A stretch of 64,000 nucleotides of DNA. Source: a virus. Taxonomy: Duplodnaviria; Heunggongvirae; Uroviricota; Caudoviricetes. The notes below the pieces were generated by a model. The model made no database searches and had not been told where the DNA came from. It saw nothing but the letters and a program-made list of their open reading frames with translations. The position numbers and the translations under genes are program-made. Below, piece by piece: positions 18,950 to 56,779 of this stretch. Each line of letters opens with the position of its first letter. Position 1 is the stretch's first letter. Where the stretch lies: IMG/VR virus record IMGVR_UViG_3300032117_000012; one strand, 5' to 3'.

Positions 18950-19539
18950 TCTTTATAAATCCTTGATCTTACGTCATTTGCCGACATACCTTCCGTATCT
19001 AAAGAATTTAGAAAATTGGCAATATGATCCAATCCTTCATAGAGATAAGGTTTAGGTGTCTTACTAACATTTGCATCATAGATCTTTTTACGTAGACCAG
19101 ACGAACTAAAATGATGATCACGAGAACAATAATGAATCTTAATAGGTAAATTAGCCCCTGTAAAAGTATGATTATGTTTGTAATCAGCACCAAGAAATCT
19201 AACATCAATTGGATACGTTGTCAAGATAGCATATAGATCATCTTCTGTTTCGTATGGAATAATTGTGGCACCTGATGCAAAAATACAACTACTTAATTGT
19301 AACCATCGTTCGAAATATGATTGGATAGGTCTGTTCTTCTCAGGGCGATCTATAGTGGGATCAGTATGCAATCCAATATAGAGGTGGCTACAATTCTCCC
19401 TACATTCCTTAAGCATTAGTAAATGCCCAGCATGTAAAAGATCAAATGAAGAAGCTATGAAACCATTTGTCATGAATTTAAAATCGCTTCTACCAAAAAG
19501 ATAAACCCTACTGTGATCACTATAAGATCCATAGCACAT
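18931..19539 (-). CDS. cytidylyltransferase-like nucleotidyltransferase (TagD / RfaE domain II-like; sugar-phosphate nucleotidyltransferase)
   Basis: SSFDLLHAGHLLMLKE HxGH motif, LHTD, FLGADYK blocks parallel glycerol-3-phosphate cytidylyltransferase. Confidence 0.6.
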   Translation of the reverse strand: MCYGSYSDHSRVYLFGRSDFKFMTNGFIASSFDLLHAGHLLMLKECRENCSHLYIGLHTDPTIDRPEKNRPIQSYFERWLQLSSCIFASGATIIPYETEDDLYAILTTYPIDVRFLGADYKHNHTFTGANLPIKIHYCSRDHHFSSSGLRKKIYDANVSKTPKPYLYEGLDHIANFLNSLDTEGMSANDVRSRIYKECMDPS

Positions 19540-21884: not shown

Positions 21885-22256
21885 TTATCTTGGTGCTCTT
21901 CGCTCTATAACATGATGAATAAATTTCTCAGGAGAAAAATATTTCTCAAATATGGCCAATACTAACATAGGATCATATGGTTTGCAAGAAAAAATATCAA
22001 CATAGGCAGAATTGCCGTCAGACGGGCAAAAATGTGCCGATATATTAGAGTCTTGTAAAAGCTGATAAATGGAGAATCCAACCTTATTAGGATCGTTGGT
22101 TTCACACCATACGATTTGAAGATCCCCAATTTTAATCATTTCGATACGTTCAAGAAGTTCATCTATAAACTTTTGAAATGTTATCTTACAATTAATAGCA
22201 TCTGAATTACAATTAGATGCATCGATGGCAGTCAACCATCCCCAAGGTTCTTCCAT
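21885..22256 (-). CDS. hypothetical protein
   Basis: 123-aa ORF. Confidence 0.4.
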   Translation of the reverse strand: MEEPWGWLTAIDASNCNSDAINCKITFQKFIDELLERIEMIKIGDLQIVWCETNDPNKVGFSIYQLLQDSNISAHFCPSDGNSAYVDIFSCKPYDPMLVLAIFEKYFSPEKFIHHVIERRAPR

Positions 22257-23385: not shown

Positions 23386-24111
23386 TCAAATCAATGCGTT
23401 GTTACGAACATCATCAAACAGCTGGTCACGCAATAGTTCACCATCTGAATACACATCTTGCAAAACATCATCTTCTGCATACATCTCATATTTAACGGGA
23501 TGGCTCTCCGTGGTATAAGTAAAAAACTTACTATCCCAATATGGGGTATGCTTAAGAATCATTCGACCCTTCTTAGACCTTTTACCAGAATCAGTAAGAG
23601 GATCCTTATACACGTCAATCCATTCACCGTTGATAAATGCCGCCGAACACTTCATTGCAAACTTTTGATCGTCACGATTAACAATCTGTAGAAGAGCGCC
23701 GCCTTGGCCGAATGCCACATTATCAGCACTATAACCAATAGCAATAATAGCATTCAGAATTTCTTTGATAGTGTCAATAGTAATACCATCGCCTTGAATT
23801 ACACGAACATTGTTGAGAACCTTATATCCTTTATCATTAATAGCATGCCCAAAATGATAATCAAGGATTCGGATGCAGCTTTCTACCACTGTTGCTGGAT
23901 CGCCACTATCTGGGCGGATAACGGTAAACCCACCAAGTTCTCCGTTCAAGATAATCTTCTGTTTAATTTCAGGATCAGTTCCTAGGAGTTCGCAAAACTC
24001 AAAAATATTATAAGTATCTCCTACTATTGCAAAAGTCTTACCACCGGTGCCAAAATTGTCAATCATCGTGTTAATGTAGGTTCGTTCACTCATTTTATAT
24101 TTCCTTTCCAA
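23386..24111 (-). CDS. nadV: nicotinamide phosphoribosyltransferase (NAMPT/NadV), C-terminal fragment translated from its own ATG
   Basis: IRPDSGDP, VIQGDGI, RSKKGRM blocks align to NAMPT C-terminal half. Confidence 0.8.
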   Translation of the reverse strand: MERKYKMSERTYINTMIDNFGTGGKTFAIVGDTYNIFEFCELLGTDPEIKQKIILNGELGGFTVIRPDSGDPATVVESCIRILDYHFGHAINDKGYKVLNNVRVIQGDGITIDTIKEILNAIIAIGYSADNVAFGQGGALLQIVNRDDQKFAMKCSAAFINGEWIDVYKDPLTDSGKRSKKGRMILKHTPYWDSKFFTYTTESHPVKYEMYAEDDVLQDVYSDGELLRDQLFDDVRNNALI

Positions 24112-25199
24112 TCAACTAGTTTAAAAGAGCATCCATTAAACTTAGCGTTTCTTTTTGAATAACTATTATATGTGCCTTCTTTGATGGCTATGTTCCATAC
24201 CCCTTCAGTGCATCTATGTTCTCTCAAAAATGAACCTTTATTACCACAAAAGGTAAACAAAAGATTGTCTACCGGGGAATAGCATTCTATTTTCTTGTCA
24301 GTAGCCTTCATGTGAATACTAGGATCATACTCATCGCAGTTGATATTCACAAACTTATTCAGTTCTTTAATAAAGACTGTGACCATCCCCTTTGTTGTTC
24401 CATGATCAGGTTTCCTATTTTCTTTGGACGCCAGTGTTGAGTATCTATCCTTATTATGGTAATATTCTTCGGTTGTTACATGACATATTTTATCAGTGAA
24501 GGAGTCTTTTACAGTAACCTTACCTGCATGAATGCCATTAAGTTCATGATTGTCTTCTGTAGTTGCATATCTTCGCATTCCAGCATCATCTATTACTTTC
24601 CCTCCAAACACCTTAACATGAACACTAGGATCAAACATGCTAACTGGCATGGAACTTGTTTCTCCTGTTTCAATAACTCGTACACTAACTTTGCCAGACG
24701 ATGCGGTGCGATATAGATGTTTATTGTTTCGGTATTCCTCTACGGAAACTCTACAAACACCACCAGATGATATTTTTATAACCCGAACACTGTTGCTAGT
24801 AGGATAAGCATGAATAGTAGAATCAAACTCATCTTTTGGAATCCTGAAATAAGTTGAATCTTCTAGCAATCTAACAACAACCGTATTTTTAGTATTCCAC
24901 CCTCTGCCTCCGGATATTATATTATAAGTATCTACCCTTTTCACGAAATCTTCATTTACAAGTTCCGCTTCTTTGTTATTCATCTCATCAAACGAATCAT
25001 ACATGTATAATATGCGTCTGCTAAACGCATGAACACCGTATTTTAACAAGGCATTAGTAAAACGAGTCCCGGAACCAAGATATCCATCATCAATGTTGGT
25101 AGTAGAATGCTGTCCAACATATATCATACCATTGATAGTATTTGTAGTTTCGTATATAATATAAAACATTTTTAAGTATGCTCCATTGCAGTAACACAC
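24090..25199 (-). CDS. GIY-YIG homing endonuclease inserted inside the NAMPT gene
   Basis: N-terminal IYETTNTINGMIYVGQHS...GYLGSGT GIY-YIG module; sits between the two NAMPT halves with a 4-nt gap and an overlap. Confidence 0.75.
   Translation of the reverse strand: MCYCNGAYLKMFYIIYETTNTINGMIYVGQHSTTNIDDGYLGSGTRFTNALLKYGVHAFSRRILYMYDSFDEMNNKEAELVNEDFVKRVDTYNIISGGRGWNTKNTVVVRLLEDSTYFRIPKDEFDSTIHAYPTSNSVRVIKISSGGVCRVSVEEYRNNKHLYRTASSGKVSVRVIETGETSSMPVSMFDPSVHVKVFGGKVIDDAGMRRYATTEDNHELNGIHAGKVTVKDSFTDKICHVTTEEYYHNKDRYSTLASKENRKPDHGTTKGMVTVFIKELNKFVNINCDEYDPSIHMKATDKKIECYSPVDNLLFTFCGNKGSFLREHRCTEGVWNIAIKEGTYNSYSKRNAKFNGCSFKLVDWKGNIK
24090..25199 (-). mobile_element. freestanding homing endonuclease gene insertion splitting nadV
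   Basis: see CDS; no room for a group I intron core at either junction. Confidence 0.6.
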
Positions 25200-25203: not shown

Positions 25204-25908
25204 TTAGTCCTTTTGGTGACTTGCACTTATAGAATGTTCGCTAGCAGGAATACTAAAACCAGCCATATCAGCACCATAATACCGACGAGCATACAAAAGA
25301 GCTTCGATAGTGTCAGTACCCATGAAGTTGATAAGATGGGCAGATCCGCCAATTCCAGCAGATTCCAAACTAGATACGCCACGAGCGCCGAAATCGTGCA
25401 ATTTAAAATTAATATCAGCGGGTGTGCCAGTATGTTCAAGAGCATCCAAAATCACCTTCTTAATTTCACGACTATTGGTTGCTACTGTTGTAGGATACCA
25501 AATCGAACGAAGAATAGCAGTTTCAAGAAAACTTGTCAACCAATAACATTTTGGATCTGTGTTGATGATAGTCGCCAACACATTACGAACAGGAATAACC
25601 ATTCCCTCTGGAACTGCCTTAATATGAACAGGAAGGCAACCATTATGAGCATGAAGAATATATTCCCATCCTTCACGGTTAAATGGTTCACCATGGGCAG
25701 TAATAATGGCCTCAGCTTCATCAATCATGTCTTGGGTAATAGGTGCAAGCAAGTATTCCTTGATAAATGCTTGGAGGCCAAAAAATACGGTTTCATCATA
25801 CTTTCCACCCCTACTCTCGATATAACTGTAGATATATTCGGTGTTAGGAGGATATTGATTGAACTGGCTGTACTTATACGAATCTGCGTTAAGAATAATA
25901 TTTTTCAT
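25204..25908 (-). CDS. nadV: nicotinamide phosphoribosyltransferase (NAMPT/NadV), N-terminal fragment
   Basis: ADSYKYSQ, HDFGARGVSS, PASEHSISA blocks align to NAMPT N-terminal half; ends ...SHQKD where homologues continue. Confidence 0.8.
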   Translation of the reverse strand: MKNIILNADSYKYSQFNQYPPNTEYIYSYIESRGGKYDETVFFGLQAFIKEYLLAPITQDMIDEAEAIITAHGEPFNREGWEYILHAHNGCLPVHIKAVPEGMVIPVRNVLATIINTDPKCYWLTSFLETAILRSIWYPTTVATNSREIKKVILDALEHTGTPADINFKLHDFGARGVSSLESAGIGGSAHLINFMGTDTIEALLYARRYYGADMAGFSIPASEHSISASHQKD

Positions 25909-25961: not shown

Positions 25962-26276
25962 TTATTTAGGCGAAAACTTAAAAACCGCATCATAATTTTC
26001 ATTCCATCCGGGAGAATCATATACTACAGTCCAACCCTGTTGTCTATAAATTTCTTCAATATCAAGATAATTATTTTCGAATATTTCTACTCGTGTCATC
26101 CCAGATTTAATGAGCTTTTCTATAATTGTATTTTGAGAAATTGTAAATGGTCTATTATTAAATTCCTTAACAATTAACTCATTAACAGTTTCGATAACAA
26201 TTTGAGGAATATAATGGACTTTACTAGATAAAGCTTCTTTTGGTGAAATAGGAAGTATATGTCTAGATGTTACCAT
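25962..26276 (-). CDS. hypothetical protein
   Basis: 104-aa ORF between nadV and macrodomain gene. Confidence 0.4.
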   Translation of the reverse strand: MVTSRHILPISPKEALSSKVHYIPQIVIETVNELIVKEFNNRPFTISQNTIIEKLIKSGMTRVEIFENNYLDIEEIYRQQGWTVVYDSPGWNENYDAVFKFSPK

Positions 26277-26758
26277 TATTCAAACTCCACTAAAGTTACC
26301 GAGCCTCCTTGCTCTGTTATCACCTTAGCAAAATCTTCTAGCATAGTCAAGATACGATTTTTATCTCCACCAGCAAGACCCATTCCGATATAAGGAAATC
26401 CAAATCTAGCTTTACTAAGTGTAGTAAGCTTCTTTAGAATAAGATAGAAGCTCTCATACTCGAAATGATCAATGCCACGAGGCGTATAGTGGACCTGAGT
26501 GTATGCATTGATCACGATGAAATTAAAAGTTGTATACGAGCTAAAGTTGCCAAGCTTAGCGACAGGATTCTTCCACTGTTGAGATGCCAAACAATCAGCA
26601 TCATATGCACCCGGATATCTTGCACGAATTTCCTTGGCAATGCCCCCTGCCATTGTGTTTTGACAGTTGCAACCATGTACGATAACATCAAACTCACCTT
26701 GTTCGGCAAGATCAATAAGGTTTCCTTTGGTATGTTTAAGCATTGTTCTGACTTTCAA
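26276..26758 (-). CDS. macrodomain protein (ADP-ribose binding/processing)
   Basis: GEFDVIVHGCNCQNTMAGGIAKEI is the macro-domain signature block. Confidence 0.7.
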   Translation of the reverse strand: MKVRTMLKHTKGNLIDLAEQGEFDVIVHGCNCQNTMAGGIAKEIRARYPGAYDADCLASQQWKNPVAKLGNFSSYTTFNFIVINAYTQVHYTPRGIDHFEYESFYLILKKLTTLSKARFGFPYIGMGLAGGDKNRILTMLEDFAKVITEQGGSVTLVEFE

Positions 26759-29018: not shown

Positions 29019-30116
29019 TCATACTCCTAGGAAGAAATTGATAATATGAAAATGATCATCAAAAAGCATATCTTCACGAAGTTCCCCGATAGGGATCCAC
29101 TTTGCTTTTTCAGCATCATCCGCACCTTTGACCTTAGGCAATTTTACATCATCTGTCAACTTGAAATGGGCAGCATGAGTGATAACCCTACCCAAAGTAG
29201 ATCGATGCACATCATCGAACACATGTTCGCCTACTTGACAACCACGGATAACCTTTTCAGGAACCTTAATAAGAGTTTCTTCCTTAAGTTCACGAAGGAT
29301 ACCATCGGATATACGTTCATCCATCTCTAAATGGCCTCCCGGAAGTGCCCACAGCCCCTTTCCCGGCTCACTGCGGCGCTTTACCAACAGAATATGCCCA
29401 GATTGCTCTACAACAGCATCTACAGTAACATGTTTAACTGGATATGGTGCAGCTGCCCATGATTTCTTATATGCCTTTACGTGGACCAATTCCGACTTCA
29501 ATTGGTCATACTCTGAGGTATGAATAAATCGGTCAAAGAGAAATTGTGCGCTCTCCTTAGGAAGAAGAGAATCTTGGACTTCCCATTTATGTAACCGTCC
29601 TTCAAGAAATCCTTCACGAATATTAGTTGCATGAATATCTCCATGAACATCCACATTCACGGATTCCCATTGGGGGAACAATTTAAGATAATATGAAGAA
29701 TGATCTTTAGAGGCTCCAATCAAGCCTACTTTGGCATCAGCAGTTCCATGAAGATGAAATCCACCCTCATTAATGATATCAAGAGTTACATTATTAGCAA
29801 TATCTTGAATTTGCTTAACCCACGCACTATCATTGTAAAGCTTATCATATAGAGGCTTAATAATAAGGCGACTGTTAGCAGTTTCTGTGGAATATCCAAA
29901 TGGAATCCCTACATGATCTGAGAATACCTCAGAAATAACATTTTCTCGCTCTTGAAATGTAAAGGGGGTACGAATTGTACGTGCTTTACCAGCAGATCCA
30001 ACCAAAACCAAGACATTTCTTGATTTCTCTAAAGCGGTTTGGATAACCTTGACATGGCCAAGGTGAAGAGGACTAAATCGCCCAATAAAAACCAATAGGT
30101 CAAATTCTTTATTCAT
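29019..30116 (-). CDS. natV: bifunctional NMN adenylyltransferase / Nudix hydrolase (NatV/NadM-like)
   Basis: N-terminal GRFSPLHLGH HxGH nucleotidyltransferase motif; C-terminal Nudix box GGHLEMDERISDGILRELKEETL. Confidence 0.85.
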   Translation of the reverse strand: MNKEFDLLVFIGRFSPLHLGHVKVIQTALEKSRNVLVLVGSAGKARTIRTPFTFQERENVISEVFSDHVGIPFGYSTETANSRLIIKPLYDKLYNDSAWVKQIQDIANNVTLDIINEGGFHLHGTADAKVGLIGASKDHSSYYLKLFPQWESVNVDVHGDIHATNIREGFLEGRLHKWEVQDSLLPKESAQFLFDRFIHTSEYDQLKSELVHVKAYKKSWAAAPYPVKHVTVDAVVEQSGHILLVKRRSEPGKGLWALPGGHLEMDERISDGILRELKEETLIKVPEKVIRGCQVGEHVFDDVHRSTLGRVITHAAHFKLTDDVKLPKVKGADDAEKAKWIPIGELREDMLFDDHFHIINFFLGV

Positions 30117-35756: not shown

Positions 35757-36230
35757 TTAAAAATCTTTTATGTTAGATACCAAGTCGATAGTCTGTTCAG
35801 CGGATGTATGAGTTATTCCTCTGCCACCAGCTGTGATAAATGCGTCAACATTTTTCCATTGATCATCTATCAATAATATATCATGCGCTGCATACAGAGC
35901 TTTTACCTCTTTTTTAGGTACGATAACTGGAATCCAAGATGGAAATCCATTGGATATCAACCATCTAATTTTCTGTTTAGCAACATCAATGAATAAATCC
36001 TGTTGAATGCCACCAGCGGATGAAAGATAAAAAACTTTAAGATTTATCGATTGAAGATATCTAATAAGATCGAATGCATCTGGTAAAACAGGAAGGGTTT
36101 CAAATCCACCATCTTTAACAAATTTTGGAAATTTCCACTGCCACTCTTCTTTTGTGCTACTAGAAAAATCATATCCAGAATTAAAATCTGCCAATACGCC
36201 ATCTATATCTAAAGCAATTGTTGTAATCAT
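35757..36230 (-). CDS. HAD-superfamily phosphatase (candidate heptose bisphosphate phosphatase GmhB-like or nucleotidase)
   Basis: LDIDGVLADF DxDG(V/T) motif I. Confidence 0.55.
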   Translation of the reverse strand: MITTIALDIDGVLADFNSGYDFSSSTKEEWQWKFPKFVKDGGFETLPVLPDAFDLIRYLQSINLKVFYLSSAGGIQQDLFIDVAKQKIRWLISNGFPSWIPVIVPKKEVKALYAAHDILLIDDQWKNVDAFITAGGRGITHTSAEQTIDLVSNIKDF

Positions 36231-36844
36231 TAGTATTTTATCTCCTCTGGATTTTTATCGCTCTGAGTTCTACGGATAGTCTGAGCGATAAAATGCATCA
36301 ATGCTTGGCTTGCATCTTCAACAATCCCATAATTATTAGATTCGATATGTAAATAAACATCTGAGTAGTCTAATGCTGCTCCTCCATCGAATCCTACAAT
36401 TGCAATTGTTTTCATACATTTAGCTTTAGCTGTTTGTAATGCTTTGCAAATATTTGGACTATTTCCAGATGAACTAATAGCAATTAAAACATCATTGCGC
36501 CTTCCTTGCCATTCTATTTGTTTTGAAAAAACTTCATCATAACCAATATCATTGGCGATGGCAGTCATAACAGAAACATTTGATGCTAAAGAAATAATTT
36601 TTGGATATAATTCTGTATCTGTTGCTACCCCTTTCATACAATCACATGATAAATGTTCAGATATTGCTGCTGACCCGCCATTGCCACATGTGAATATGGT
36701 TTTAGAAGATCCCATAGCTTGTATCATAATATCAACTATTTGATCTAAATCAAATTCATCAATATTATGAATTGCTACTGCTAGGTCATCAGCATAAGTA
36801 TGCAAATCTAGATAAGGTTTAGTCACGATATACCACCTTTGCAC
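36230..36844 (-). CDS. gmhA: SIS-domain sedoheptulose-7-phosphate isomerase (GmhA-like)
   Basis: FTCGNGGSAAISEHLSCD matches the GmhA GNGGSAADAQH block. Confidence 0.7.
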   Translation of the reverse strand: MQRWYIVTKPYLDLHTYADDLAVAIHNIDEFDLDQIVDIMIQAMGSSKTIFTCGNGGSAAISEHLSCDCMKGVATDTELYPKIISLASNVSVMTAIANDIGYDEVFSKQIEWQGRRNDVLIAISSSGNSPNICKALQTAKAKCMKTIAIVGFDGGAALDYSDVYLHIESNNYGIVEDASQALMHFIAQTIRRTQSDKNPEEIKY

Positions 36845-37766
36845 CTTCTGGTGCCATTTTAACTGTTAACACTGTGTCTTTAAACTTACATTGTGTTAAT
36901 TTGTTGCGATCTTTTTCTGTTTGCATCATGGCTAATATATACCCACCTCCGCCAGCACCAAGAACCTTACATCCGATACTGCCTAAGGAATAACAAGTTT
37001 CAATAATATCATCTATGATATTGTTTGATATTTCGGATGATGTTTTTTTCTTAAGGTTCCACGAATGAGATAAATTTGTGCCATACTGAATTATATCTAC
37101 TTTAGAATTTCCAATTAAATGCGCTATATCTTTTATTTTATCTAAGTGGTTCGATTTATCAAACACCACAGTATCTAAAATTGAGGTGGCTTTTCTTTGT
37201 ATTCCAGTTGAAATAAGAACACAATTATCCAATATATTATTATCATCAATTTTAGAAATTTTACATCCAGATTCTGAATATTCGATATAATTCATCCCAC
37301 CAAATGCTGAAGCATACTGATCTTGTTTGCCAATTCTCCATCCGCATTTTTCAATTTCTATCTTAGAGGCAAGCTCTGCTATTGAATATGCATTATATCC
37401 AGAAAAAGAATATAAATCTACTACAGCAGAAATAAGGGCACATGTGAAGGCAGAAGATCCACCTAGCCCACTTCCTATCGTAGGAATATCCGCCCATGTA
37501 TTAATTTCGATACCTGTTTTTATTCCAAAATATTTGAGAACTTCTCTGACAATATCATGTTCAATATCATTGATATCATAGACAAGTTCTTGTTTCATAT
37601 ATGAAATTTTAACATGACGATGCGGAGTTTTACTAACAGCCACATAAACAAATTTATCAACAGCGATGGAGATTGTAGCGCCACCGCCATTATTAATATA
37701 ATACTCTGGAACATCTGTACCACCTCCAAAAAAGCTAACCCGTAACGGAGCTTTAGCTAAAATCAT
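36819..37766 (-). CDS. GHMP-family sugar kinase, D-glycero-D-manno-heptose 7-phosphate kinase (HddA)-like
   Basis: N-terminal APLRVSFFGGGTD and internal GSGLGGSSAF GHMP ATP-binding motif. Confidence 0.7.
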   Translation of the reverse strand: MILAKAPLRVSFFGGGTDVPEYYINNGGGATISIAVDKFVYVAVSKTPHRHVKISYMKQELVYDINDIEHDIVREVLKYFGIKTGIEINTWADIPTIGSGLGGSSAFTCALISAVVDLYSFSGYNAYSIAELASKIEIEKCGWRIGKQDQYASAFGGMNYIEYSESGCKISKIDDNNILDNCVLISTGIQRKATSILDTVVFDKSNHLDKIKDIAHLIGNSKVDIIQYGTNLSHSWNLKKKTSSEISNNIIDDIIETCYSLGSIGCKVLGAGGGGYILAMMQTEKDRNKLTQCKFKDTVLTVKMAPEGAKVVYRD

Positions 37767-37921
37767 AAAATTTCCTCAATAACAACCCCAACCTCTACAT
37801 TTAGTACATTTTACCCCGCCGCCGGGGGCATTAACTATATCCCCGTCACAATCTGGGGTAGCATCCCATAGCTCATCGTGATATTCTTTGCGCTTGGCTT
37901 CTTTACGTCCATCCTCTGTCA

Positions 37922-38932
37922 TTATCCGGTCCTATACATGAACTTTGGAGACGCTACAGAAATGTCTTTCCCTATGTTTTCGGCTACCAATGATTGGCAT
38001 AAGGCATTCCACTGAGAAGACACTCTATCCCAATTAAATCTAAAATCTGCATATGTTTTTACAAAATTAAGATATGGCATCATATTATCATTTTGTAGAC
38101 GATTAATAGTATCATCCAAGAGATTATAGAACAATCCAGCATGTTTGTTTTGATCATTATCCCATTGATATTGTAATGTCAACCCACCACTTGTATCAGT
38201 TAATCCTGCAAAATTAGGATGAACGCATACACAACCAGATGACATTGCCTCAATCAAGGATCTACTATTACATTCCATCCAAATGGAAGGATATGCAAAA
38301 ATATGTGCATTTGCTACATGCTGTCTTACAGTTTCGTTACTAGCAAATCCGTGGTAGTTAATTTGGGGATGATTTCGACAACGTTCAAATAATTCTTCGA
38401 ATTGTGCATCAGCTTCTGACCATCCATAAATTGCATAGCTAGAAAATACATCTAAAATTATATTAGGATGTTTCTTCGCCAGTTCTTCAAATACTGGCAC
38501 CAAGATGTTCAATCCTCTCTGAGGAGTGGAGGTATAGATTAAACGTATTTCTTTTTTTGGATCTGGTTTATTAATTGCTGGAAATGGATCAATTGCGGTA
38601 TCGATTACACAGAATTGCTGAGTTTGGGGGACACCTAACAACATCTGATATGCGTTCATTTGCCAATTACCACAATATACTATCTTATGAAACCTATTTC
38701 TGCTATTAGGATCCTGTAGATGTTTAGTTTCACTATCCATTGGTAGATCATGAACCCAATAAATTCTAAGCCTATCATCATGTAATTCTCGTACACGAGA
38801 AGGAATAATCTGAAATTTATCATGAAATTCCGGGTTTAATCTTGAAATAAGACCTTCTACCATTTGTTCAGTTCCGCCATGAGAATTCTTATTTAATTCA
38901 TTACGGGACCAAAGTTTTGGATCAATGCTCAT
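37922..38932 (-). CDS. glycosyltransferase (GT4-like, tentative)
   Basis: HGGTEQ N-terminal block and C-terminal E..SLIEAMSSGCVCV resembling GT4 E-x7-E region. Confidence 0.45.
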   Translation of the reverse strand: MSIDPKLWSRNELNKNSHGGTEQMVEGLISRLNPEFHDKFQIIPSRVRELHDDRLRIYWVHDLPMDSETKHLQDPNSRNRFHKIVYCGNWQMNAYQMLLGVPQTQQFCVIDTAIDPFPAINKPDPKKEIRLIYTSTPQRGLNILVPVFEELAKKHPNIILDVFSSYAIYGWSEADAQFEELFERCRNHPQINYHGFASNETVRQHVANAHIFAYPSIWMECNSRSLIEAMSSGCVCVHPNFAGLTDTSGGLTLQYQWDNDQNKHAGLFYNLLDDTINRLQNDNMMPYLNFVKTYADFRFNWDRVSSQWNALCQSLVAENIGKDISVASPKFMYRTG

Positions 38933-39908
38933 AATTTAATTCCTCGATATGTCTATAATGCGATTTAATAATATCGCTTAAATTGTGTTTGGGTCTATAA
39001 TTCAATTGTGTGATGGTTTTAAACGTATCTGCTAAAAGATACGCAGGATCCCCAGAACGTTCTTCGCTTATCGAATAAGTTAAAGGAAAATGCTGCTGAA
39101 ACATTTTTACAAGCTCTTTATTAGAGCTATGGCATGCATTACCATTTCCAACGTTAAATGTGTCGAAATATCCATATTCAGTGAGGATGATATGGTTGGC
39201 GGCAGCTATAAGAGTTCGACACACATCTTCTACATGTATGTAATCTCTAACACAGGTTCTGTCATATGTATTATAATCAGATCCAAATATCTTGAATTCA
39301 GACTTATTTATAGAGGCCATAGACATTTTTGTCAATATATGAGGTTGATCAACATCCTGTCCTAATTCCCCATATGAGCCTGCTACATTGAAAAACCTCA
39401 TAGCCATAGCTCTGGCACCATATGCGGCACATACAGCCTCTAAGAGCTTCTCTCCGAACCATTTGGTCCATCCATAGGGGTTGATGGGATTTCCTGCTAA
39501 ATCTTCTCTGATTAGATGTGATGTTCCAACATCACCATATACCGCAGCAGAAGAAGCAAAAACAATAGGAGTTTTTTGATTTACTCCTTCTACGATACCA
39601 GTCAACATTTCAGTTAAATGTGAATTGTTGTTTTTAAAATATGTAAGAGGATTTGTCACAGATGGGCCAAGCAAACTATTGGCTCCTAAATGGAATATTA
39701 CATCAACTTTATTTTGTTTAGCTTTCCAAAAGTTGATATTGCCATATCCTGTAGGCTTATTATTATAAGCACGAGAAACATAATTAGAAATGATGTCCAA
39801 AGGCTTATTATCAATATCCAAAGCCACAACATTCCAACCAGATTCATGAAGAATTTTACAAAGAATTCGGCCAATATATCCCCCTGCTCCGGTAACAATA
39901 GCTTTCAC
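38922..39908 (-). CDS. NAD-dependent sugar-nucleotide epimerase/dehydratase (SDR; GalE/HldD-like)
   Basis: MKAIVTGAGGYIGRIL Rossmann GxxGxxG; YGWTK catalytic YxxxK. Confidence 0.7.
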   Translation of the reverse strand: MKAIVTGAGGYIGRILCKILHESGWNVVALDIDNKPLDIISNYVSRAYNNKPTGYGNINFWKAKQNKVDVIFHLGANSLLGPSVTNPLTYFKNNNSHLTEMLTGIVEGVNQKTPIVFASSAAVYGDVGTSHLIREDLAGNPINPYGWTKWFGEKLLEAVCAAYGARAMAMRFFNVAGSYGELGQDVDQPHILTKMSMASINKSEFKIFGSDYNTYDRTCVRDYIHVEDVCRTLIAAANHIILTEYGYFDTFNVGNGNACHSSNKELVKMFQQHFPLTYSISEERSGDPAYLLADTFKTITQLNYRPKHNLSDIIKSHYRHIEELNYEH

Positions 39909-40062
39909 AATTCATCCCCAATTTCTATTTCTTCAACATATTTTCGCCCGATATCTAAGCATAACGACAAGACTGCCATTGCACTTATTCTGGACGCTAG
40001 ATTTACAACTAACCATACCGCTATTTTAGCTTTAATATGTTCCCATTTGGTCAACGGTTGTA

Positions 40063-40557
40063 TCATATACTCTCACTTATCGTATAAGAAATAACATTTG
40101 AATAATTCAGATTAAATTTTCCATGTTTACCAGACACTACCACGATATCTTTATCTAATGGATCTAATGATATAAATGTAAGCATATCTTGTTCACTGTG
40201 TAAACCAGTGTTATATTCAACCGATAATGGAGAATAATTTGTCATATCATGAAAAAATAATGATTTATATTGATCATCCATTTCTGAAATATATTCAACT
40301 AAAGAATCATACCCGCCTATAGGTCTATAGTAAGAATCTTCGTATATAACCCAAATTTGAGGAACAGTCTTAGCATCTGGTGCTAATTCTAAAAGCTCTT
40401 CTTTGGTATAGTCCTCTCCAAGATTCATATATGTAAATTCAAAATTCTTATTAGTGAGAACTTCTTTTGCTTTATCACAAAATTGACAATTATTTTTTCC
40501 ATAAACGATGAAACGCATATTATCTCCAAGAAATTTTATTAATAGAAATCCTAGCAT
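40063..40557 (-). CDS. glutaredoxin/NrdH-like redoxin with C-terminal extension
   Basis: FIVYGKNNCQFCDKAKEVL CxxC in glutaredoxin context, TVPQIWV. Confidence 0.6.
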   Translation of the reverse strand: MLGFLLIKFLGDNMRFIVYGKNNCQFCDKAKEVLTNKNFEFTYMNLGEDYTKEELLELAPDAKTVPQIWVIYEDSYYRPIGGYDSLVEYISEMDDQYKSLFFHDMTNYSPLSVEYNTGLHSEQDMLTFISLDPLDKDIVVVSGKHGKFNLNYSNVISYTISESI

Positions 40558-44027: not shown

Positions 44028-44792
44028 TTGTGGTTCACGAAGTCCCCACTTCCAACCACCTTAACAGCTTTCAAGGAGCATGTCAACATGATTATTTATC
44101 TCTACGTAAAACAACATTCCATCACAGGATTAAAATATTTTGGAATGACTACTAAATTAAATCCCTTTACTTATAAAGGTTCTGGTAAATATTGGTCAAA
44201 ACATATCAAAAAACATGGTAGAGATTATATTAAAACATTAGATGTTTGGGGATTTGATGACCAAAAGCTTTGTACTGAGTTTGCTTTAAAATTCTCTCGT
44301 GATAATAATATCGTCAATTCTAATCAATGGGCCAACCTTATAGAAGAGATTGGAATTTCTGGAAGAATTAGAGGGCAGTCGGGATCACCAAGAAGCGAAG
44401 AGTGCAGAATAAAAATATCAGAAAAAGCTTTAGGTAGAAAATCTTGGAACAAAGGACTAACTAAAGAAAATGATCCAAGGGTTGCTAAAATATCACAATC
44501 CTTGTCAGGTATAAAGAAAAATTCCGAACATATTGAAAAATTAAAAATTCCTAAATCGGATGAACATAAACAAAAAATAAAAGAAATAATGAATAAAGAT
44601 AAATATAAAAACTTATTAGCAGATAGAGTCAGAGGAATACCAAGAACAGAAGAACAAAAGCATAAACAACGATTGGCTATGATAGGTAGACCCGGAGCAA
44701 ACAAAGGAAAACCTATGTCTGAAGAAAGTAAAAGAAAACTCAGCGAGTCTCAAAAATTAAGAATAGCCAAAAGGAAAGAATTATGTCCATAA
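44028..44792 (+). CDS. GIY-YIG/NUMOD3 homing endonuclease (seg-like, freestanding); likely start at MIIYLYV (44088)
   Basis: IYLYVKQHSITGLKYFGMT GIY-YIG-like start; repeated NUMOD3-type motifs (GRKSWNKGL, GRPGANKGKPMSEESKRKLS). Confidence 0.65.
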   Translation: MWFTKSPLPTTLTAFKEHVNMIIYLYVKQHSITGLKYFGMTTKLNPFTYKGSGKYWSKHIKKHGRDYIKTLDVWGFDDQKLCTEFALKFSRDNNIVNSNQWANLIEEIGISGRIRGQSGSPRSEECRIKISEKALGRKSWNKGLTKENDPRVAKISQSLSGIKKNSEHIEKLKIPKSDEHKQKIKEIMNKDKYKNLLADRVRGIPRTEEQKHKQRLAMIGRPGANKGKPMSEESKRKLSESQKLRIAKRKELCP

Positions 44793-47508: not shown

Positions 47509-47961
47509 CTATCTTTTTTGTGAATGGCAATTTGGACATAAAAATTGTAAATTTTCAGGTGAGTCATCCCAATGTTTTTCATTGATATGATCAATTTCTA
47601 AAATCAATTTTTTATTATTCCAAAAAGATTCAATTTTACATTCATTACATATTTCTGGTATCCCTAAAGCAATTAATCCATTTCTTAAATGGGATGCTTT
47701 TTGTCTTCCAGAATTTATATCTCTTGTAACTAAGCGTTCGATAGGATTTCTCTTATTTAGAGAGACTTTTCCTTTATTCCAAGCTTGACCAGTCATATGA
47801 GACAAATCAATTTGAAATTTCGAACACACACGCTTTAAATGACTTATGTTGCCTCCGACAGGCCTCTTGTCACATTTCCTCAAAACTTCAGATAAAGACA
47901 TCGAATCTGCTACTATTAAAGCTAATTCATCTTTTTTATAATTATTATATTTTTTATTCAT
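47509..47961 (-). CDS. HNH homing endonuclease
   Basis: C-terminal DHINEKHWDDSPENLQFLCPNCHSQK HNH motif; starts 2 nt after a tRNA. Confidence 0.7.
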   Translation of the reverse strand: MNKKYNNYKKDELALIVADSMSLSEVLRKCDKRPVGGNISHLKRVCSKFQIDLSHMTGQAWNKGKVSLNKRNPIERLVTRDINSGRQKASHLRNGLIALGIPEICNECKIESFWNNKKLILEIDHINEKHWDDSPENLQFLCPNCHSQKR

Positions 47962-50169: not shown

Positions 50170-50829
50170 ATGTATACAAATAAATGCATAACATGTCAAG
50201 AAAATTTTACCGTAAATAGAGACTCTAGGAAAAGAAAGTATTGCAATTCATGCAAAGAAAAACAACCCAAACCCTCTACTTCTAAGACCTGTAAAAATTG
50301 TCAGAAAAATTTTGCAACCCCGACATATCATCAAAGGGTAAAAATATTCTGCTCGCATTCTTGTTCTGCTGAATTTAATAATAAATTAAGATCAAAGAAT
50401 ATGGTACAAAAATTAAAGACAAATATTGTTAAGAAAAACATTGAGCCACAATTTTGTATTTTATGTAATACTAAAGTAAAGTTTAAAAAATCGAAATATT
50501 GTTCTAAAAATTGTGAACTGACACATAAAAAGAAAATAAAACTAGACAAATTTGAAAAAGGTGAATTATCTTCCAAATTGGCTAAAGATATTCTCTTAGA
50601 GAATCACGGTAACATATGCTTGAATACAACTTGCGCATGGGATTTCACAAAGAAATTTGTCAGTGTTGAACTTGAACATATAGATGGTAACTCAGAAAAT
50701 AATTTACCAGAAAATTTGACCTTACTATGCCCAAACTGCCATTCTTTAACGTCAACTTATAAAGCTAAAAATAAAGGAAATGGTAGATCTGTCAGAATGG
50801 AAAGATATTATTCTGGTAAAAGTTATTGA
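50170..50829 (+). CDS. HNH homing endonuclease with N-terminal CxxC zinc-finger repeats
   Basis: C-terminal NLTLLCPNCHSLTS HNH motif; multiple CxxC pairs. Confidence 0.7.
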   Translation: MYTNKCITCQENFTVNRDSRKRKYCNSCKEKQPKPSTSKTCKNCQKNFATPTYHQRVKIFCSHSCSAEFNNKLRSKNMVQKLKTNIVKKNIEPQFCILCNTKVKFKKSKYCSKNCELTHKKKIKLDKFEKGELSSKLAKDILLENHGNICLNTTCAWDFTKKFVSVELEHIDGNSENNLPENLTLLCPNCHSLTSTYKAKNKGNGRSVRMERYYSGKSY

Positions 50830-53114: not shown

Positions 53115-53735
53115 TTACATAGTTGGGCCATTACCATTTTTAAACCCAATTTCTCCGCCTTGATCAATAATGGCCTGACATACATCATCAAACAGCATAG
53201 GTTTGAATTCCGTATGCTCGGCAGATACACAAAAATATCTTGGATCTATTCCTTCTTTATAAAAGGTCTGATATCCAAAACTTCCACCGGGACCATCTAG
53301 TTCTTTGTATGGAACTTTCGTCATAACCCTGTTAGAATGAAGATGACCATGTATATTACATCCGAACCTTCCAAGAGACTCAGCATGAATTGGGATATGA
53401 GATAGAATCAACCCATTCATTACATGGTAACCACGAATATCATAAAAATACGGAGTATAATCAGTCAATTTAAAAATATCATGATTGCCCTTGATCAAAA
53501 CCTTCTTTCCATTCAGTTTACCAAATGTAGACAGATGTTTACGACCAATAACCGCATCTCCTAGTACATAAACTTTATCGTTATCTTGAACTGTATCATT
53601 CCACAGTTCAATCATAGCAATATCCATCTCTTCCGCCGAATTCCAAGGCCGAATGGGGTTACCATTTTTATCTGTAAAAACACACATATTGTTATGTCCA
53701 AAATGTGTATCAGCGATTAGAAATGTTCTACTCAT
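53115..53735 (-). CDS. calcineurin-like metallophosphoesterase (candidate 3'-phosphatase/2',3'-cyclic phosphodiesterase of an end-healing system)
   Basis: DTHFGH, GDAV, GNHD, GHLH metallophosphatase motifs. Confidence 0.7.
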   Translation of the reverse strand: MSRTFLIADTHFGHNNMCVFTDKNGNPIRPWNSAEEMDIAMIELWNDTVQDNDKVYVLGDAVIGRKHLSTFGKLNGKKVLIKGNHDIFKLTDYTPYFYDIRGYHVMNGLILSHIPIHAESLGRFGCNIHGHLHSNRVMTKVPYKELDGPGGSFGYQTFYKEGIDPRYFCVSAEHTEFKPMLFDDVCQAIIDQGGEIGFKNGNGPTM

Positions 53736-53916
53736 ATTTATTCCTTACAAATGATCCATTAAAATATCCGACCATTTTTCAATTATTTCATCTCTGATAT
53801 CATCGTCAAGATCGTTCCATTCATCTCCGATACCTTTACGAGATTCCAAATCTTTAACAATGGCCTCTGCCGCTTCTCTATACGAAGCAATATCATTTGT
53901 CAACATCCTTGACTCC

Positions 53917-54384
53917 TCAAACATAAGAAATTTTAGAAAAACCTTCTTCCATCATGGGATGTTGAAAATTCATCGCCATAGATTCCAAAACATGTTTTGG
54001 AATTGTCTTACCGAGACGAGAATCCAACCTACGCTGCCATTCTTCTTTATCTGGAACAGGAAATACAACAGCCTTAAAATTATATCCAAATGGTTTCAAA
54101 ATATCGATAATTCTTTTCCGAGACTTCACCGAAAGATTAGTACGATCAATGTAGATATCAGACCCAGCTTCAGCTAACTTAGCCAGACGATTAAACATGG
54201 TTTTCTCAGCAAACCCTATAAGATCTTTAAATGCTGCATCATATGTCATCATATAGGTATTAGCAATATCTTCAATAATTCGATCTGTAGAAACAACAAA
54301 GGTATTAAAATCTTTCTGTGCATCAACCCAAGTGGATTTACCGGATCCGGGAACGCCGACTAAAAAAGTACATTTACGCATCAT
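53917..54384 (-). CDS. polynucleotide 5'-kinase, T4 Pnk kinase-domain homologue (P-loop)
   Basis: VGVPGSGKSTW Walker A identical in T4 Pnk (GCPGSGKSTW); IYIDRTNL parallels Pnk ISDTNL. Confidence 0.7.
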   Translation of the reverse strand: MMRKCTFLVGVPGSGKSTWVDAQKDFNTFVVSTDRIIEDIANTYMMTYDAAFKDLIGFAEKTMFNRLAKLAEAGSDIYIDRTNLSVKSRKRIIDILKPFGYNFKAVVFPVPDKEEWQRRLDSRLGKTIPKHVLESMAMNFQHPMMEEGFSKISYV

Positions 54385-54551
54385 CAGATCCTTTCTTCTT
54401 AAAAGTATACTTCAATTTTGGAACAACAACCATTTGTTGAGTTTCATTATAATAAGGATTAACCGAAACTCCAACCAATTCCCAACCTTCTCGTTTATGC
54501 CATGCCAGAGTTTCAGGAGAAAGTCCAGTTTTAACTGTCAAAATATTATAA

Positions 54552-55688
54552 TTACTCATAATCTCTTACGCCTTTAAATTTTCCAAATCTTGGTATACCA
54601 TCAGGAGTATAATCCTGAAATACTACAGTACCCATTTTACCTATAATTTGAGATTTGTCAACCAAAAGTTGTCGGCAATATTCGAGAGAACCTAATGGAC
54701 CACTTCCAAATAATTTACCTTCTTTTGTCTGACAAATTACATTCGCAGCTACTCCCTCACGATTACCATCTCCATCCACCACATCAATAATCAAAAATTC
54801 ATCATCCTGAAATTCTTTCCATTTCATTAATGATGTCGAACGCTTAAATTCATATTTTTCATTGAGACGTACCATGCCACCTTCAAACTCAGATTGTAGA
54901 TATTCCGAACATACATTACCGACATTTTCCAATGGACAGTCGAGAATAGTATCTACGGCCACAATAGAAGGATGATTAATAACATATACGATTGCCTCAT
55001 ACGTAGAATATCTTTGTATAAATCCTACATCTATAGATGGCACATCATAAATCCAGTATTGAACCTTGGCAGCAGATTCGATAAGATCTTCCGCAGTTGG
55101 AGTTTTTTTCTTAATCAATGACATTATCTTATTAAAATTACGGCTATATTCATGGTTATAAAGTTCGCCGTCCAGAATAAGATCTGGGAATTGTTCAAAT
55201 AATGGTGCCAACGCATCCGAAATATGGGGAACAGATACAAATAATTCTTTATTACGAGAAAAACATCCATCTTTGGTGACGATACATCTGGCACCATCTA
55301 ATTTTGGTTGGACTGATACTGAGGTAACTCCGGCTTCAATTAAAAACCGTAGACGATCTTTCCATTTTGTTGCCAACATAGGTTCAACACCTTGTCTGTT
55401 ATCAACATCATTAATGTTTTCAAAATAGCCTTTTTTTATTTGTTTTTCATACATCGCTATTACTTCAAGTTCGGCCTGATCTTCTGGCGAAGTTTCGTTA
55501 GTTTTTCCTACATTTTTAGACTTACACCTAGTCCAACTAGAAATAGTCTTCTTTCCATCTATTTGGCCAGAAATAGTATGGTAAGACCCCCCATCGATTT
55601 CTGCGTACCAAATTTGAATATTACCTTTGGTTGTTCTTTTATACAGATGAGGTTTCGTTTTCATTAATAATTTCTTTCTTAAAAACAT
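54552..55688 (-). CDS. ATP-dependent DNA ligase
   Basis: EPMLATKW start-of-domain motif; KLDGAR nucleotidyltransferase motif I (KxDG). Confidence 0.7.
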   Translation of the reverse strand: MFLRKKLLMKTKPHLYKRTTKGNIQIWYAEIDGGSYHTISGQIDGKKTISSWTRCKSKNVGKTNETSPEDQAELEVIAMYEKQIKKGYFENINDVDNRQGVEPMLATKWKDRLRFLIEAGVTSVSVQPKLDGARCIVTKDGCFSRNKELFVSVPHISDALAPLFEQFPDLILDGELYNHEYSRNFNKIMSLIKKKTPTAEDLIESAAKVQYWIYDVPSIDVGFIQRYSTYEAIVYVINHPSIVAVDTILDCPLENVGNVCSEYLQSEFEGGMVRLNEKYEFKRSTSLMKWKEFQDDEFLIIDVVDGDGNREGVAANVICQTKEGKLFGSGPLGSLEYCRQLLVDKSQIIGKMGTVVFQDYTPDGIPRFGKFKGVRDYE

Positions 55689-55799
55689 AATGTGTGTGAT
55701 AATTTTTCACATATACTGAGACTAATTCCCATCCATCCGCTCCATATCTATTCATTGTAGCTTCAGACATTTCAACAAAATTTAAATATTGAAATGTCT

Positions 55800-56231
55800 T
55801 CACTTCTCGGCCTCTGGATAGATAATAATCATAGGCTTTTGTTGTTTTTCTGCATAATCATGCGTATACCATGTTCCTCCATTAGGTTGCCATTCTTTTT
55901 GATATGGCACTACCATAAGAAGATCTGTCTCGTCAACTATATTTCTATTACGAGCAAAATAGCTTAAAGGCTCTCTACGTTCATCTGAGATAACAAAAGC
56001 TCGTAGATCCTCTTTTGCAGGCGGATGGCATACAATTTTATAACCAAGTTGTTTGGCTATATCTGCTAATTCTGCATCAACTCCTATACAATCGCCATGA
56101 TGAAATTCAAATTCTTCATAAATTTTTGCACCTTCATGTTTAATATTATGAAGAAAATTGCATGCCATTTGAATTTGATATTGATTACAACCGGAACGTG
56201 TGCCTGTTACACCGATCTTGATAACACTCAT
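55800..56231 (-). CDS. SLOG/DUF2493-like Rossmann-fold protein (tentative)
   Basis: IGVTGTRSG N-terminal glycine-rich motif, HHGDCIGVD. Confidence 0.3.
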   Translation of the reverse strand: MSVIKIGVTGTRSGCNQYQIQMACNFLHNIKHEGAKIYEEFEFHHGDCIGVDAELADIAKQLGYKIVCHPPAKEDLRAFVISDERREPLSYFARNRNIVDETDLLMVVPYQKEWQPNGGTWYTHDYAEKQQKPMIIIYPEAEK

Positions 56232-56647: not shown

Positions 56648-56779
56648 GCTAGAACTCCCACTCGAATGGTGGGAGGTTGACGATGATCGCTCGGAAGACG
56701 TTCCTTCTAAAATAGGAAAAGATTTAATAGATTTTATAATATCATGCTTTCTACATTAAAGATTATACACATACTTCGT

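Follow-up and report, generated by a model that had tools for sequence, protein, structure and literature searches.

Introduction

Phage DNA can carry sugars, as with glucosyl-hydroxymethylcytosine in T4 and arabinosyl-5-hydroxycytosine (5hoC) in RB69, and bacteria possess a pathway to GDP-D-glycero-alpha-D-manno-heptose (GmhA, HddA, GmhB and HddC; Burkholderia WcbL, Campylobacter HddA) that is found in capsule, O-antigen and S-layer glycan clusters. Here we analyse a five-gene cassette at positions 35757-39908 of a 64,000-nucleotide stretch of viral DNA (IMG/VR record IMGVR_UViG_3300032117_000012; the whole stretch is called the window below), which comes from an uncultured freshwater phage that the gene content of the window places among the T4-like myoviruses. 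We think it probable, though well short of certain, that the cassette is a nucleoside-diphosphate (NDP)-heptose donor-supply module serving a glycosyltransferase (GT) that occupies a fixed locus in this T4-like branch.

Among described phage systems, RB69, DLP3 and HY126 have a UDP-arabinose / arabinosyl-5-hydroxycytosine system encoded by Afh and Aat genes (PMC13326640). In a preprint, the metaviromic ‘contig 53’, which combines a HAD/kinase with a cytidylyltransferase and a GT-B enzyme, gave mono- and di-heptosyl-5-hydroxymethylcytosine (5hmC) in E. coli, and pairs of an epimerase and a GT were described as a functional ‘subclass II’ in which GT activity depended on the partner epimerases (bioRxiv 10.1101/2023.12.21.572611). 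The 5-HepmC species of that preprint has a mass of 449 amu. With this preprint precedent, heptosylated phage DNA is not new in itself. Phage heptose genes are likewise already annotated, in Cr30, in SynMITS9220M01 and in PHROGs 14703, 34407 and 7878, so that the cassette is not rare. The preliminary description of the window, made from its letters alone, had called a complete heptose pathway in a lytic phage unusual; this is not supported, since public records annotate the same cassette for Cr30 (GenBank KF301602) and for a cyanophage, and many metagenomic T4-like contigs have it too. In the searchable literature we found no paper linking Cr30 or a phage phosphoheptose isomerase to a function and no functional study of the Cr30 gene block, and the phiM9 paper holds nothing relevant to the cassette.

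Results

The five open reading frames (ORFs) of the cassette lie in a row on the minus strand, exactly where the preliminary description had put them. The motifs that it quoted (ALDIDGVLADF, GNGGSAA, APLRVSFFGGGTD, GAGGYIG and YGWTK) are all present, and its family calls are statistically strong (NT5C/PHROG 2643, SIS_2, GHMP_kinases_N, Glycos_transf_1 and Epimerase). From the glutaredoxin gene upstream to the HAD gene at the far end, the gene junctions are -4, -4, -11, a 155-nt gap (with a 48-aa ORF inside it), -26 and -1 nt. The block is thus tightly packed, with overlaps of 1-26 nt throughout and the 155-nt gap as the single exception.

The heptose assignment is carried by the kinase and the isomerase, whose genes overlap, giving the window a pairing of a GmhA-like isomerase with a heptose-kinase-like enzyme. 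The GHMP sugar kinase (36819-37766, minus strand, 315 aa; GHMP_kinases_N 5.8e-15) is HddA/WcbL-like. Its top four PDB matches are all heptokinases (WcbL, 4usm/4usk, 5.5e-32; 3k85, 9e-27; HddA, 4n3o, 1e-20), and its GHMP motifs are intact, PTIGSGLGGSS, QDQY and GAGGGGY being invariant in the phage kinase homologs. By homology, it is predicted to phosphorylate D-glycero-D-manno-heptose 7-phosphate at C1. The SIS-domain ketose-phosphate isomerase (36230-36844, minus strand; SIS_2 4.6e-21) is GmhA-like; its ORF has 204 codons, and gene callers place the probable start at the ATG at 36826, which gives 198 aa. In PDB searches ranks 1-10 are all GmhA, with DiaA at ranks 11-12. In E. coli GmhA numbering (the positions agree with the PDB alignments, from which the Neisseria and Colwellia residues were taken), the isomerase keeps H61, H180, S55, D94, S119, S121 and S124 and has the substitution T120S. 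The preliminary description had allowed that the two proteins might resolve to non-heptose families, and this did not happen: in both PDB and NCBIfam searches the isomerase leads to GmhA and the kinase to WcbL/HddA.

Where canonical GmhA has H-E-x-R-Q-H, the isomerase belongs to a subfamily with H-D-K-x-E-H, and the underlying changes (E65D, Q172E and R69G, the last preceded by Lys) are constant in all phage homologs. To place this subfamily we turned to cellular genomes, taking as a sample the 80 loci with the closest kinase homologs (31-41% identical, from many phyla). A GmhA-like isomerase lies within 8 kb of the kinase in 45 of the 80, and 41 of these 45 kinase-linked isomerases carry H-D-K-x-E-H. 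In Sphingomonas asaccharolytica, an isomerase of the same subfamily occurs together with an HddA-like kinase, an HddC-GmhB fusion, short-chain dehydrogenases/reductases (SDRs) and large surface-glycan GTs, which by its gene content is a cluster of the canonical GDP-heptose type. This locus and the pairing in cells lead us to assign the isomerase step of the GHMP-kinase heptose route to the H-D-K-x-E-H subfamily, although its substrate may be a different ketose phosphate. As a side observation, the isomerases found beside GHMP (HddA-like) kinases, in the window and in loci L028-L107, form a distinct subfamily of which no member reaches the curated GmhA cut-offs.

Next to these two enzymes, the cassette shows a pattern of conservation that ties its genes to one another. 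In the T4-like Caulobacter phage Cr30 (KF301602 / NC_025422, gp014-gp019) the order is glutaredoxin, ‘UDP-glucose 4-epimerase’, ‘glycosyl transferase’, ‘D,D-heptose 7-phosphate kinase’, a small ORF and ‘phosphoheptose isomerase’, with protein identities of 35-45% to the window. The core of SDR, GT, kinase and isomerase recurs in six IMG/VR contigs (L007-L012), with kinases about 54% identical and the order of GT and SDR swapped, in a 232-kb ENA contig (L017), and in two further T4-like contigs (L110 and P0022) whose GTs are 58-68% identical; apart from those of IMG/VR, the metagenomic T4-like contigs that bear the core span 56-232 kb. At the nucleotide level, 50,697 phage records were searched by megablast with the cassette and with bases 1-17000, which returned no relatives, and the sole blastn match in the phage records was to 49 nt of the Cr30 kinase gene.

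The GT itself has a wider distribution than the sugar genes. Orthologs with 35-48% identity occur in Cr30, DLP6, the phiM12-group, RHph_I1_18 and vB_OspM_OC, and a metagenomic protein search with the GT returned 3,144 homologs. Glutaredoxin precedes the GT or the module in Cr30, DLP6, phiM12, RHph_I1_18, L010/L011, L017 and a 129-kb contig, L111. In the phiM12-group, DLP6, RHph_I1_18 and L111 the GT stands at this same position without the sugar genes, after glutaredoxin and ahead of the genes for proteins of ~365 aa and ~120 aa and for RNase H. Because relatives have the GT alone at the same locus, we take the GT to be the lineage-conserved element and the sugar genes to be a donor-supply add-on, in which SDR, kinase and isomerase come and go as a unit. 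The ~365-aa protein that follows the GT or the module was considered as a further member; the window lacks a homolog of it and Pfam gave no match for it, and we judged it a syntenic neighbour. In DLP6 (L004 4669-7948) a methyltransferase, a nucleotide-diphospho-sugar (GT-A) transferase, a hypothetical protein and glutaredoxin precede the GT ortholog.

An activated heptose also needs a nucleotidyltransferase (NTase), and the preliminary description had pointed to an ORF with a HAGH motif at 18931-19539. This ORF is present, on the minus strand (no strand had been given), and contains LLHAGHLL. It encodes a cytidylyltransferase-like NTase of the TagD / ECT / RfaE-domain-II class with a probable start at Met23 (CTP_transf_like PF01467 6.4e-09; PHROG 7878 1.4e-26); the HxGH motif and the fold are supported by PF01467, above its cut-off, and by TIGR00125 at 43 bits (cut-off 27.7). 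Its place in the pathway is indicated by relatives. L110 has the order WYL_2, NTase, SDR, GT, kinase and isomerase, with an NTase 44% identical to that of the window (E 3e-31). In SynMITS9220M01, gene 206, directly after the HddA- and GmhA-like genes, is a mini-HAD fused to a member of the NTase family (35% identity). An NTase homolog abuts the kinase in the jumbo phage LR756511 and in a Pedosphaera genome, and the Cr30 copy (TagD-like gp178, 42% identical) is some 5 kb away from the cassette when the linear record is closed end to end. Gene order, fusion and adjacency in these genomes therefore link the distal NTase to the pathway, bearing out the earlier suggestion, and we predict from this context that it is a heptose-1-phosphate nucleotidyltransferase. 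A search for an HddC-type (PF00483) NTase, which covered the scanned ORFs of the window and the precomputed Pfam tables of the same contigs, was negative.

The HAD-superfamily protein of the cassette (35757-36230, minus strand, 157 aa), whose gene overlaps that of the isomerase by 1 nt, is NT5C (5'(3')-deoxyribonucleotidase)-like: it has a DIDG motif, matches Pfam NT5C exactly at the cut-off and PHROG 2643 at 1.5e-21, has no NCBIfam family and no GmhB-subfamily membership, and finds in the PDB a weak match to mitochondrial deoxyribonucleotidase. An NT5C-like HAD adjoins the module only in the phage lineage of the window. In four lineages the module holds four HAD types that are unrelated to one another. 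In IMG/VR loci (L009 674-976, L011 8713-9036 and L012 8710-9033; frameshifted in L010) the place between GT and SDR is taken by a ~110-aa mini-HAD, and the type is also found at L002 7448-8200 and L109 9709-10095. It is 42% identical to RB69 gp51 and matches PDB 9iqw (‘Capsule biosynthesis protein’) at 3.7e-11; RB69 gp51 is an analog of AfhF, the arabinose 1,5-bisphosphate phosphatase (PMC13326640). A Hydrolase_6-type HAD adjoins the isomerase in the fecal contig L003, and in Sphingomonas a GmhB-type HAD is fused to the HddC-type NTase. That non-orthologous HADs replace one another here speaks for a phosphatase step as part of the pathway, and this in turn makes the NT5C-like HAD of the window a reasonable, if unproven, candidate for the heptose-1,7-bisphosphate 7-phosphatase, the alternative being a dNMP nucleotidase. 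Two observations stand beside these results. The RefSeq label of RB69p051, ‘phosphoheptose isomerase’, looks like a misnomer. The high-GC L003 (MT835644.1, 6064-12231), an ‘UNVERIFIED bacteriophage’, carries HAD, SIS, GT4, SDR, GHMP and PAP2 genes with the gene spacing of Actinomycetota loci L030, L033, L046 and L051, and may be bacterial or actinophage DNA with no relationship to T4-like phages.

The remaining two enzymes are an extended SDR and the GT. The SDR (38922-39908, minus strand, 328 aa; Pfam Epimerase 7.5e-35) resembles GalE-like NDP-sugar 4-epimerases and has the NAD site and the Ser/YxxxK triad in its motifs GAGGYIG, SSAAVYG and YGWTK. Wherever the kinase and isomerase occur the SDR occurs too, and no GT-only relative has it, a distribution that links it to the heptose genes and not simply to the GT. 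The GT (37922-38932, minus strand, 336 aa; Glycos_transf_1 7.7e-11, above the Pfam cut-off; PHROG 2170 4.3e-40) has a GT-B fold and is of the retaining GT4 type, with an invariant EX7E motif (E220-x7-E228). Its AlphaFold model (pLDDT 90.6) has as top Foldseek matches 7qsg, SenB, BshA, HepE, GtfA, TarM and PimA, all GT4/GT-B enzymes. Searches of the GT fold against the PDB and BFVD found generic GT4 neighbours that act on DNA, lipid, protein, polysaccharide and small-molecule acceptors, and these do not discriminate between acceptors; for the GT and the HAD, searches of the PDB by sequence gave no informative match.

Taken together, these assignments suggest the following route. The SIS isomerase would convert host sedoheptulose 7-phosphate to D-glycero-D-manno-heptose 7-phosphate, the GHMP kinase would phosphorylate this at C1, and a HAD phosphatase, in this phage probably the adjacent NT5C-like enzyme, would remove the 7-phosphate. 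The cytidylyltransferase-like enzyme at 18931-19539 would then form the NDP-heptose, with CDP or ADP as the most likely nucleotide, the GalE-like SDR would epimerise it, probably at C4, and the GT4 enzyme would move the heptose, with retention, to an acceptor. Family membership and gene linkage are observations; each catalytic step, and with it the sugar, its stereochemistry and the nucleotide, is a prediction from homology and gene context. At the level of fold and motif the proteins conform throughout (SIS/GmhA-like, GHMP, SDR, GT4 and cytidylyltransferase-like).

Several points weigh against this reading. The equivalog level is reached for none of GmhA, HddA, GalE, GmhB or HddC. HddA is the best NCBIfam match of the kinase at 114 bits, against a cut-off of 600 (NF049969), with fucokinase second at 62 bits; the gmhA models are the best matches of the isomerase at 120 and 121 bits (cut-offs 209 for TIGR00441 and 276 for NF010546); and the NTase scores 47 bits of the required 165 for TagD and 40 of 181 for rfaE_dom_II. 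E65D and Q172E make two metal or catalytic positions of the isomerase unlike those of characterised GmhA, and we found no biochemically characterised member of the H-D-K-x-E-H subfamily. For the SDR, galE (TIGR01179) is the best model at 196 bits (cut-off 262) and heptose_epim (TIGR02197) reaches 94 (cut-off 275), while its ~30 best PDB matches are all UDP-hexose 4-epimerases (GalE 5e-40), with HldD (4ej0) at 8e-14; being far closer to UDP-hexose 4-epimerases than to heptose epimerases, the SDR may act on a hexose. The donor domain of the GT shows no greater divergence in GT-only than in module-bearing relatives, so that the GT may not be specific for a heptose donor. In the window the NTase lies 16 kb from the cassette, and its family also turns up in phages that lack heptose genes; the combination of a GHMP (alpha-anomer type) kinase with an NTase of the RfaE-II/TagD class is, moreover, not a textbook one. 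Finally, the NT5C-like HAD family is common among large phages that have no heptose genes, and its Cr30 member lies in a nucleotide-metabolism block between the genes for dCMP deaminase and ribonucleotide reductase, so that, taken alone, it looks like a nucleotide-metabolism gene.

A rival explanation is that the genes do not form one pathway: the SDR would supply UDP-galactose/UDP-GalNAc to the GT, the HAD would be a dNMP nucleotidase, and the isomerase and kinase would boost the host heptose pool or handle another ketose phosphate. The bona fide UDP-hexose 4-epimerases among the best matches of the SDR fit this alternative, as do the HAD family’s spread beyond heptose genes (and its position in Cr30, near ThyA as well), the non-canonical active-site signature of the isomerase, the scores below the equivalog cut-offs and the GT-only relatives that manage without sugar genes. 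Against it stand the restriction of the SDR to phages with kinase and isomerase, the recruitment into the module or fusion within it of phosphatase and NTase in several lineages, and the fact that H-D-K-x-E-H is the rule beside HddA-like kinases and HddC-GmhB fusions in cells, and we consider it improbable. The heptose interpretation of the preliminary description therefore stands as far as the isomerase and kinase families go, with every enzyme below its curated equivalog cut-off; its phosphatase and epimerase also stand, the former as NT5C-like rather than GmhB-like and the latter as GalE-like rather than HldD-like.

If the cassette supplies an NDP-heptose to the GT, as we favour, the question becomes which acceptor receives the sugar. 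Our rough apportioning puts a glycoconjugate of the infected cell’s envelope first, as a possibility that stays below an even chance, phage DNA after it, as a rather doubtful one, and a virion or other phage protein and anything else last, each unlikely. A phage protein as the acceptor is possible.

One explanation, which we regard as doubtful, is DNA hypermodification, in which the GT would place heptose on a hydroxylated pyrimidine (5hmC, 5hoC or 5-hydroxymethyluracil) as a shield against restriction and CRISPR. The logic of the cassette is identical to that of the arabinosyl-5hoC route of RB69 and DLP3, and relatives of the module use an AfhF-type phosphatase. Heptosyl-5hmC has been reconstituted with a cytidylyltransferase and a GT-B enzyme, and epimerase plus GT is a recognised subclass of DNA GTs (bioRxiv 10.1101/2023.12.21.572611). 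The structural neighbours of the GT (7qsg, 3mbo, 2gej, 6kih and tll1591) are those of known phage DNA GTs (PMC13326640 Table 1), the GT of relatives lies amid replication and nucleotide genes (NrdAB, glutaredoxin, RNase H and exonuclease), and its conservation extends over phages with very dissimilar hosts, the acceptor domain being well conserved. The identities of acceptor and donor domain are 50% and 50% with DLP6 and 62% and 61% with L111, and conservation of this kind is a weak indicator.

The genes that would hydroxylate the base are another matter. The source contigs that carry the window genes reach 84-95 kb at most; proteins identical to those of the window are encoded on metagenomic contigs (up to 95 kb) that come from JGI samples and from Logan assemblies of SRA runs, and public runs containing the phage include SRR11285472 and JGI 3300013094, 3300031759 and 3300032665. 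About 16 kb of flanks were scanned beyond the 64-kb window. In the scanned window ORFs and these flanks there is a GT with a dedicated NDP-sugar supply, as in a DNA-hypermodification cluster, but no base-hydroxylating enzyme was found, neither a ThyA homolog with N177D or D169N nor a C5-methyltransferase with a 5mYOX/TET enzyme; the scan for any ThyA/gp42 homolog, DNA methyltransferase, TET/JBP dioxygenase or dCTPase was negative. As only part of the phage genome is visible (64 kb, where the whole probably exceeds 150 kb, with the replication and nucleotide block beyond the contigs), this absence is not proven for the whole phage. Complete relatives help here. Positions 143, 146, 169 and 177 of ThyA separate methylating, hydroxymethylating, cytosine-specific and 5hoC-forming enzymes, and Cr30, which has the full module, encodes a single ThyA homolog (gp049) that is 48% identical to E. 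coli ThyA and keeps L143, C146, D169 and N177; it also encodes a dCMP deaminase. DLP6 encodes ThyX, and in a close relative the ThyA gene neighbours that of DHFR, the arrangement to be expected for a genuine dTMP synthase. The lack of a hydroxylated-pyrimidine pathway in the window, the canonical ThyA of Cr30 and the ThyX of DLP6 together argue against the known routes of DNA glycosylation. The search for hydroxymethyl-pyrimidine synthesis genes that the preliminary description had proposed was thus negative in the window and gave, in the complete Cr30 genome, only a canonical ThyA, which weakens its suggestion of DNA glycosylation. Two lesser points go the same way: the GT is slightly acidic, with a pI of 6.1 (a weak indicator), and Cr30 is described, in the title of a reference, as a transducing phage. 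The DLP6 paper reports a panel of 18 restriction enzymes.

A second explanation, tentative but to our minds a little less doubtful, is that the phage remodels the host envelope, with heptose added to the LPS (lipopolysaccharide) core, O-antigen, capsule or S-layer glycan to mask receptors, block superinfection or reduce the loss of progeny to debris. In cells, homologs of the isomerase and of the kinase are found in clusters for surface polysaccharides, together with large GT2/GT4/WsaF-type transferases and a PAP2 phosphatase; similar sugar genes of cyano- and pelagimyophages have been interpreted as envelope-acting (PMC7029224); and lipid-linked acceptors are common for GT4 enzymes. The phage itself encodes a lipoprotein and, two genes downstream of the NTase, an outer-membrane protein (OMP) beta-barrel (17974-18453, minus strand; OMP_b-brl 2.7e-11), a gene which suggests that it places proteins in the host envelope. 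On the other side, the fixed-locus GT is conserved in phages of alpha- and gammaproteobacteria with very different envelopes, its acceptor domain about as conserved as its donor domain; no homolog of the window GT occurs in any of the 80 cellular loci; and the module has no flippase, polymerase or membrane GT. Our literature searches found no experimental case of a lytic T4-like phage that remodels LPS through its own GT4.

A further possibility is that a large and mostly uncultured T4-like branch decorates a phage-intrinsic target, either DNA or a conserved virion protein, with self-made NDP-heptose and a core-like GT4. We hold this to be rather unlikely. Within it, and taken jointly with it at the same low level of confidence, the route to DNA would run through a base hydroxylation unrelated to ThyA homologs or TET/5mYOX enzymes. 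If it is true, heptose hypermodification or virion glycosylation would be new for cultured T4-like phages and could be tested in Cr30.

Turning to the surroundings of the cassette, the NrdC-like glutaredoxin gene that forms its conserved upstream anchor (40063-40557, minus strand; Pfam Glutaredoxin 1e-11) overlaps the next ORF by 4 nt. That ORF is one of two small ones in the block (39905-40066 and 37776-37922) that were absent from the preliminary description. The first, on the minus strand, encodes 53 aa in the interval between glutaredoxin and SDR, overlaps its neighbours by 4 nt on both sides and figures among the called genes of public assemblies of this phage; in relatives its place is taken by a WYL_2/DUF2693 protein and a 55-aa ORF. 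The second, also on the minus strand, encodes a Cys-rich protein of 48 aa in the interval between GT and kinase, with the pattern CDGD...CTKCRGWGC (in its longer form PDCDGD...CTKCRGWGCY), and is a called gene in four public contigs of the same phage; the small ORFs at or near its position in relatives are unrelated to it. A scan for sigma-70 promoters and terminators gave background levels, with no convincing internal terminator in the block. The T4-type late promoter motif TATAAATA occurs 11 times against 13 expected and is not placed upstream of baseplate genes; being neither enriched nor positioned, it does not allow the timing of expression to be inferred.

Elsewhere, the window encodes gp32 and gp59, baseplate hub and wedge proteins, gp2, DNA ligase and Rnl1, together with a NAMPT gene broken by a homing endonuclease and a NadR-like NMNAT-Nudix protein. 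The NAMPT halves (N-terminal 25204-25908, C-terminal 23386-24111, minus strand) have the homing-endonuclease ORF (24090-25199) between them, an interruption that could be an intron, an intein-like insertion or a genuinely split gene, and with the NadR-like gene (29019-30116) they form an NAD-salvage set. There are 19 tRNA genes, 18 of them on the minus strand within 42716-63591, interspersed with HNH, GIY-YIG and NUMOD3 homing-endonuclease ORFs (44028-44792, 47509-47961, 50170-50829 and 60505-61143), and one at 1825-1900 (plus strand). A set resembling RNA/DNA end-repair genes at 53115-58632 (minus strand) comprises a phosphoesterase, an AAA_33 P-loop kinase, an ATP-dependent DNA ligase, a metallophosphoesterase and an Rnl1-type RNA ligase, and also, in the public gene table, a Gad2-domain protein (56228-56647). 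An S-adenosylmethionine (AdoMet) decarboxylase homolog and a Macro-domain protein are encoded at 21885-22256 and 26276-26758, both on the minus strand, and relatives have an AdoMet decarboxylase just upstream of the glutaredoxin-GT locus. Cr30, for its part, also encodes an inositol-1-phosphate synthase (gp121, L025 44209-45390), a cupin annotated as ‘cysteine dioxygenase’ (gp128, L025 48905-49354) and an AlkB-like ‘alkylated DNA repair’ protein (L027 19470-20021).

Discussion

If the pathway works as proposed, many environmental T4-like phages divert an intermediate of the pentose-phosphate pathway to an activated heptose for a GT of their own. The identity of the acceptor would then reveal a DNA or virion modification (with evasion of restriction, CRISPR or other defence), a rewriting of the host surface, or something else. 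With more than 3,000 metagenomic members of the GT family at a fixed locus, the interest of the system lies in this acceptor, in the non-textbook combination of enzymes and in its tractability, Cr30 being a cultivable model for the cassette. Two rules for annotation follow from the comparisons: the H-D-K-x-E-H isomerase subfamily marks the GHMP-kinase heptose route, and TagD-like NTases and AfhF-like or NT5C-like HADs can complete a heptose route in phages.

The closest known system, the gene block of Cr30, shares with the window its families, the order glutaredoxin-SDR-GT-kinase-isomerase, a distant TagD-like NTase and a T4-like myovirus as the carrier. It differs in that the NT5C-like HAD lies elsewhere and another small ORF occupies the interval between kinase and isomerase, and there is no similarity at the DNA level. 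SynMITS9220M01 (genes 196-207, MT408532) likewise has HddA-like and GmhA-like genes, the same NTase family and an SDR annotated as a heptose epimerase. Its cluster is larger, however, with an extra kinase, NTases, dehydratases and GTs, its NTase is fused to an AfhF-like mini-HAD, and identities to the window are 29-30%.

With the bacterial GDP-heptose pathway, which it would resemble in mechanism, the cassette has the isomerase and GHMP kinase families in common, and a phosphatase, an NTase and a tailoring step by an SDR are likewise present in both. In the cassette, a cytidylyltransferase-fold NTase takes the place of HddC and an NT5C- or AfhF-like HAD that of GmhB, and a single soluble GT4 enzyme works without polymerisation or export genes. 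The arabinose system of RB69 and DLP3, which are also T4-like, follows the same logic, with a SIS isomerase, an anomeric kinase, a HAD, an NTase and a GT-B enzyme. Unlike it, the cassette has a GmhA-like rather than a KdsD-like isomerase and a GHMP rather than an APH-like kinase, differences on which we rejected an arabinose pathway for the window; its NTase is of another fold, the window has no 5hoC synthase (a ThyA homolog with D169N), and RB69 has no detectable match to the window GT.

Judged by its described gene content, contig 53 resembles the cassette in having a cytidylyltransferase-like NTase, a HAD, a kinase, a GT-B enzyme and heptose as the sugar, and the epimerase adjoins the GT in the cassette as it does in subclass II. 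Contig 53 and the subclass II clusters adjoin a C5-methyltransferase and a TET-like 5mYOX enzyme, which make 5hmC, whereas neither was seen with the cassette. Furthermore, contig 53 relies on host GmhA and an APH-like kinase, whereas the cassette brings an isomerase of its own together with a GHMP kinase.

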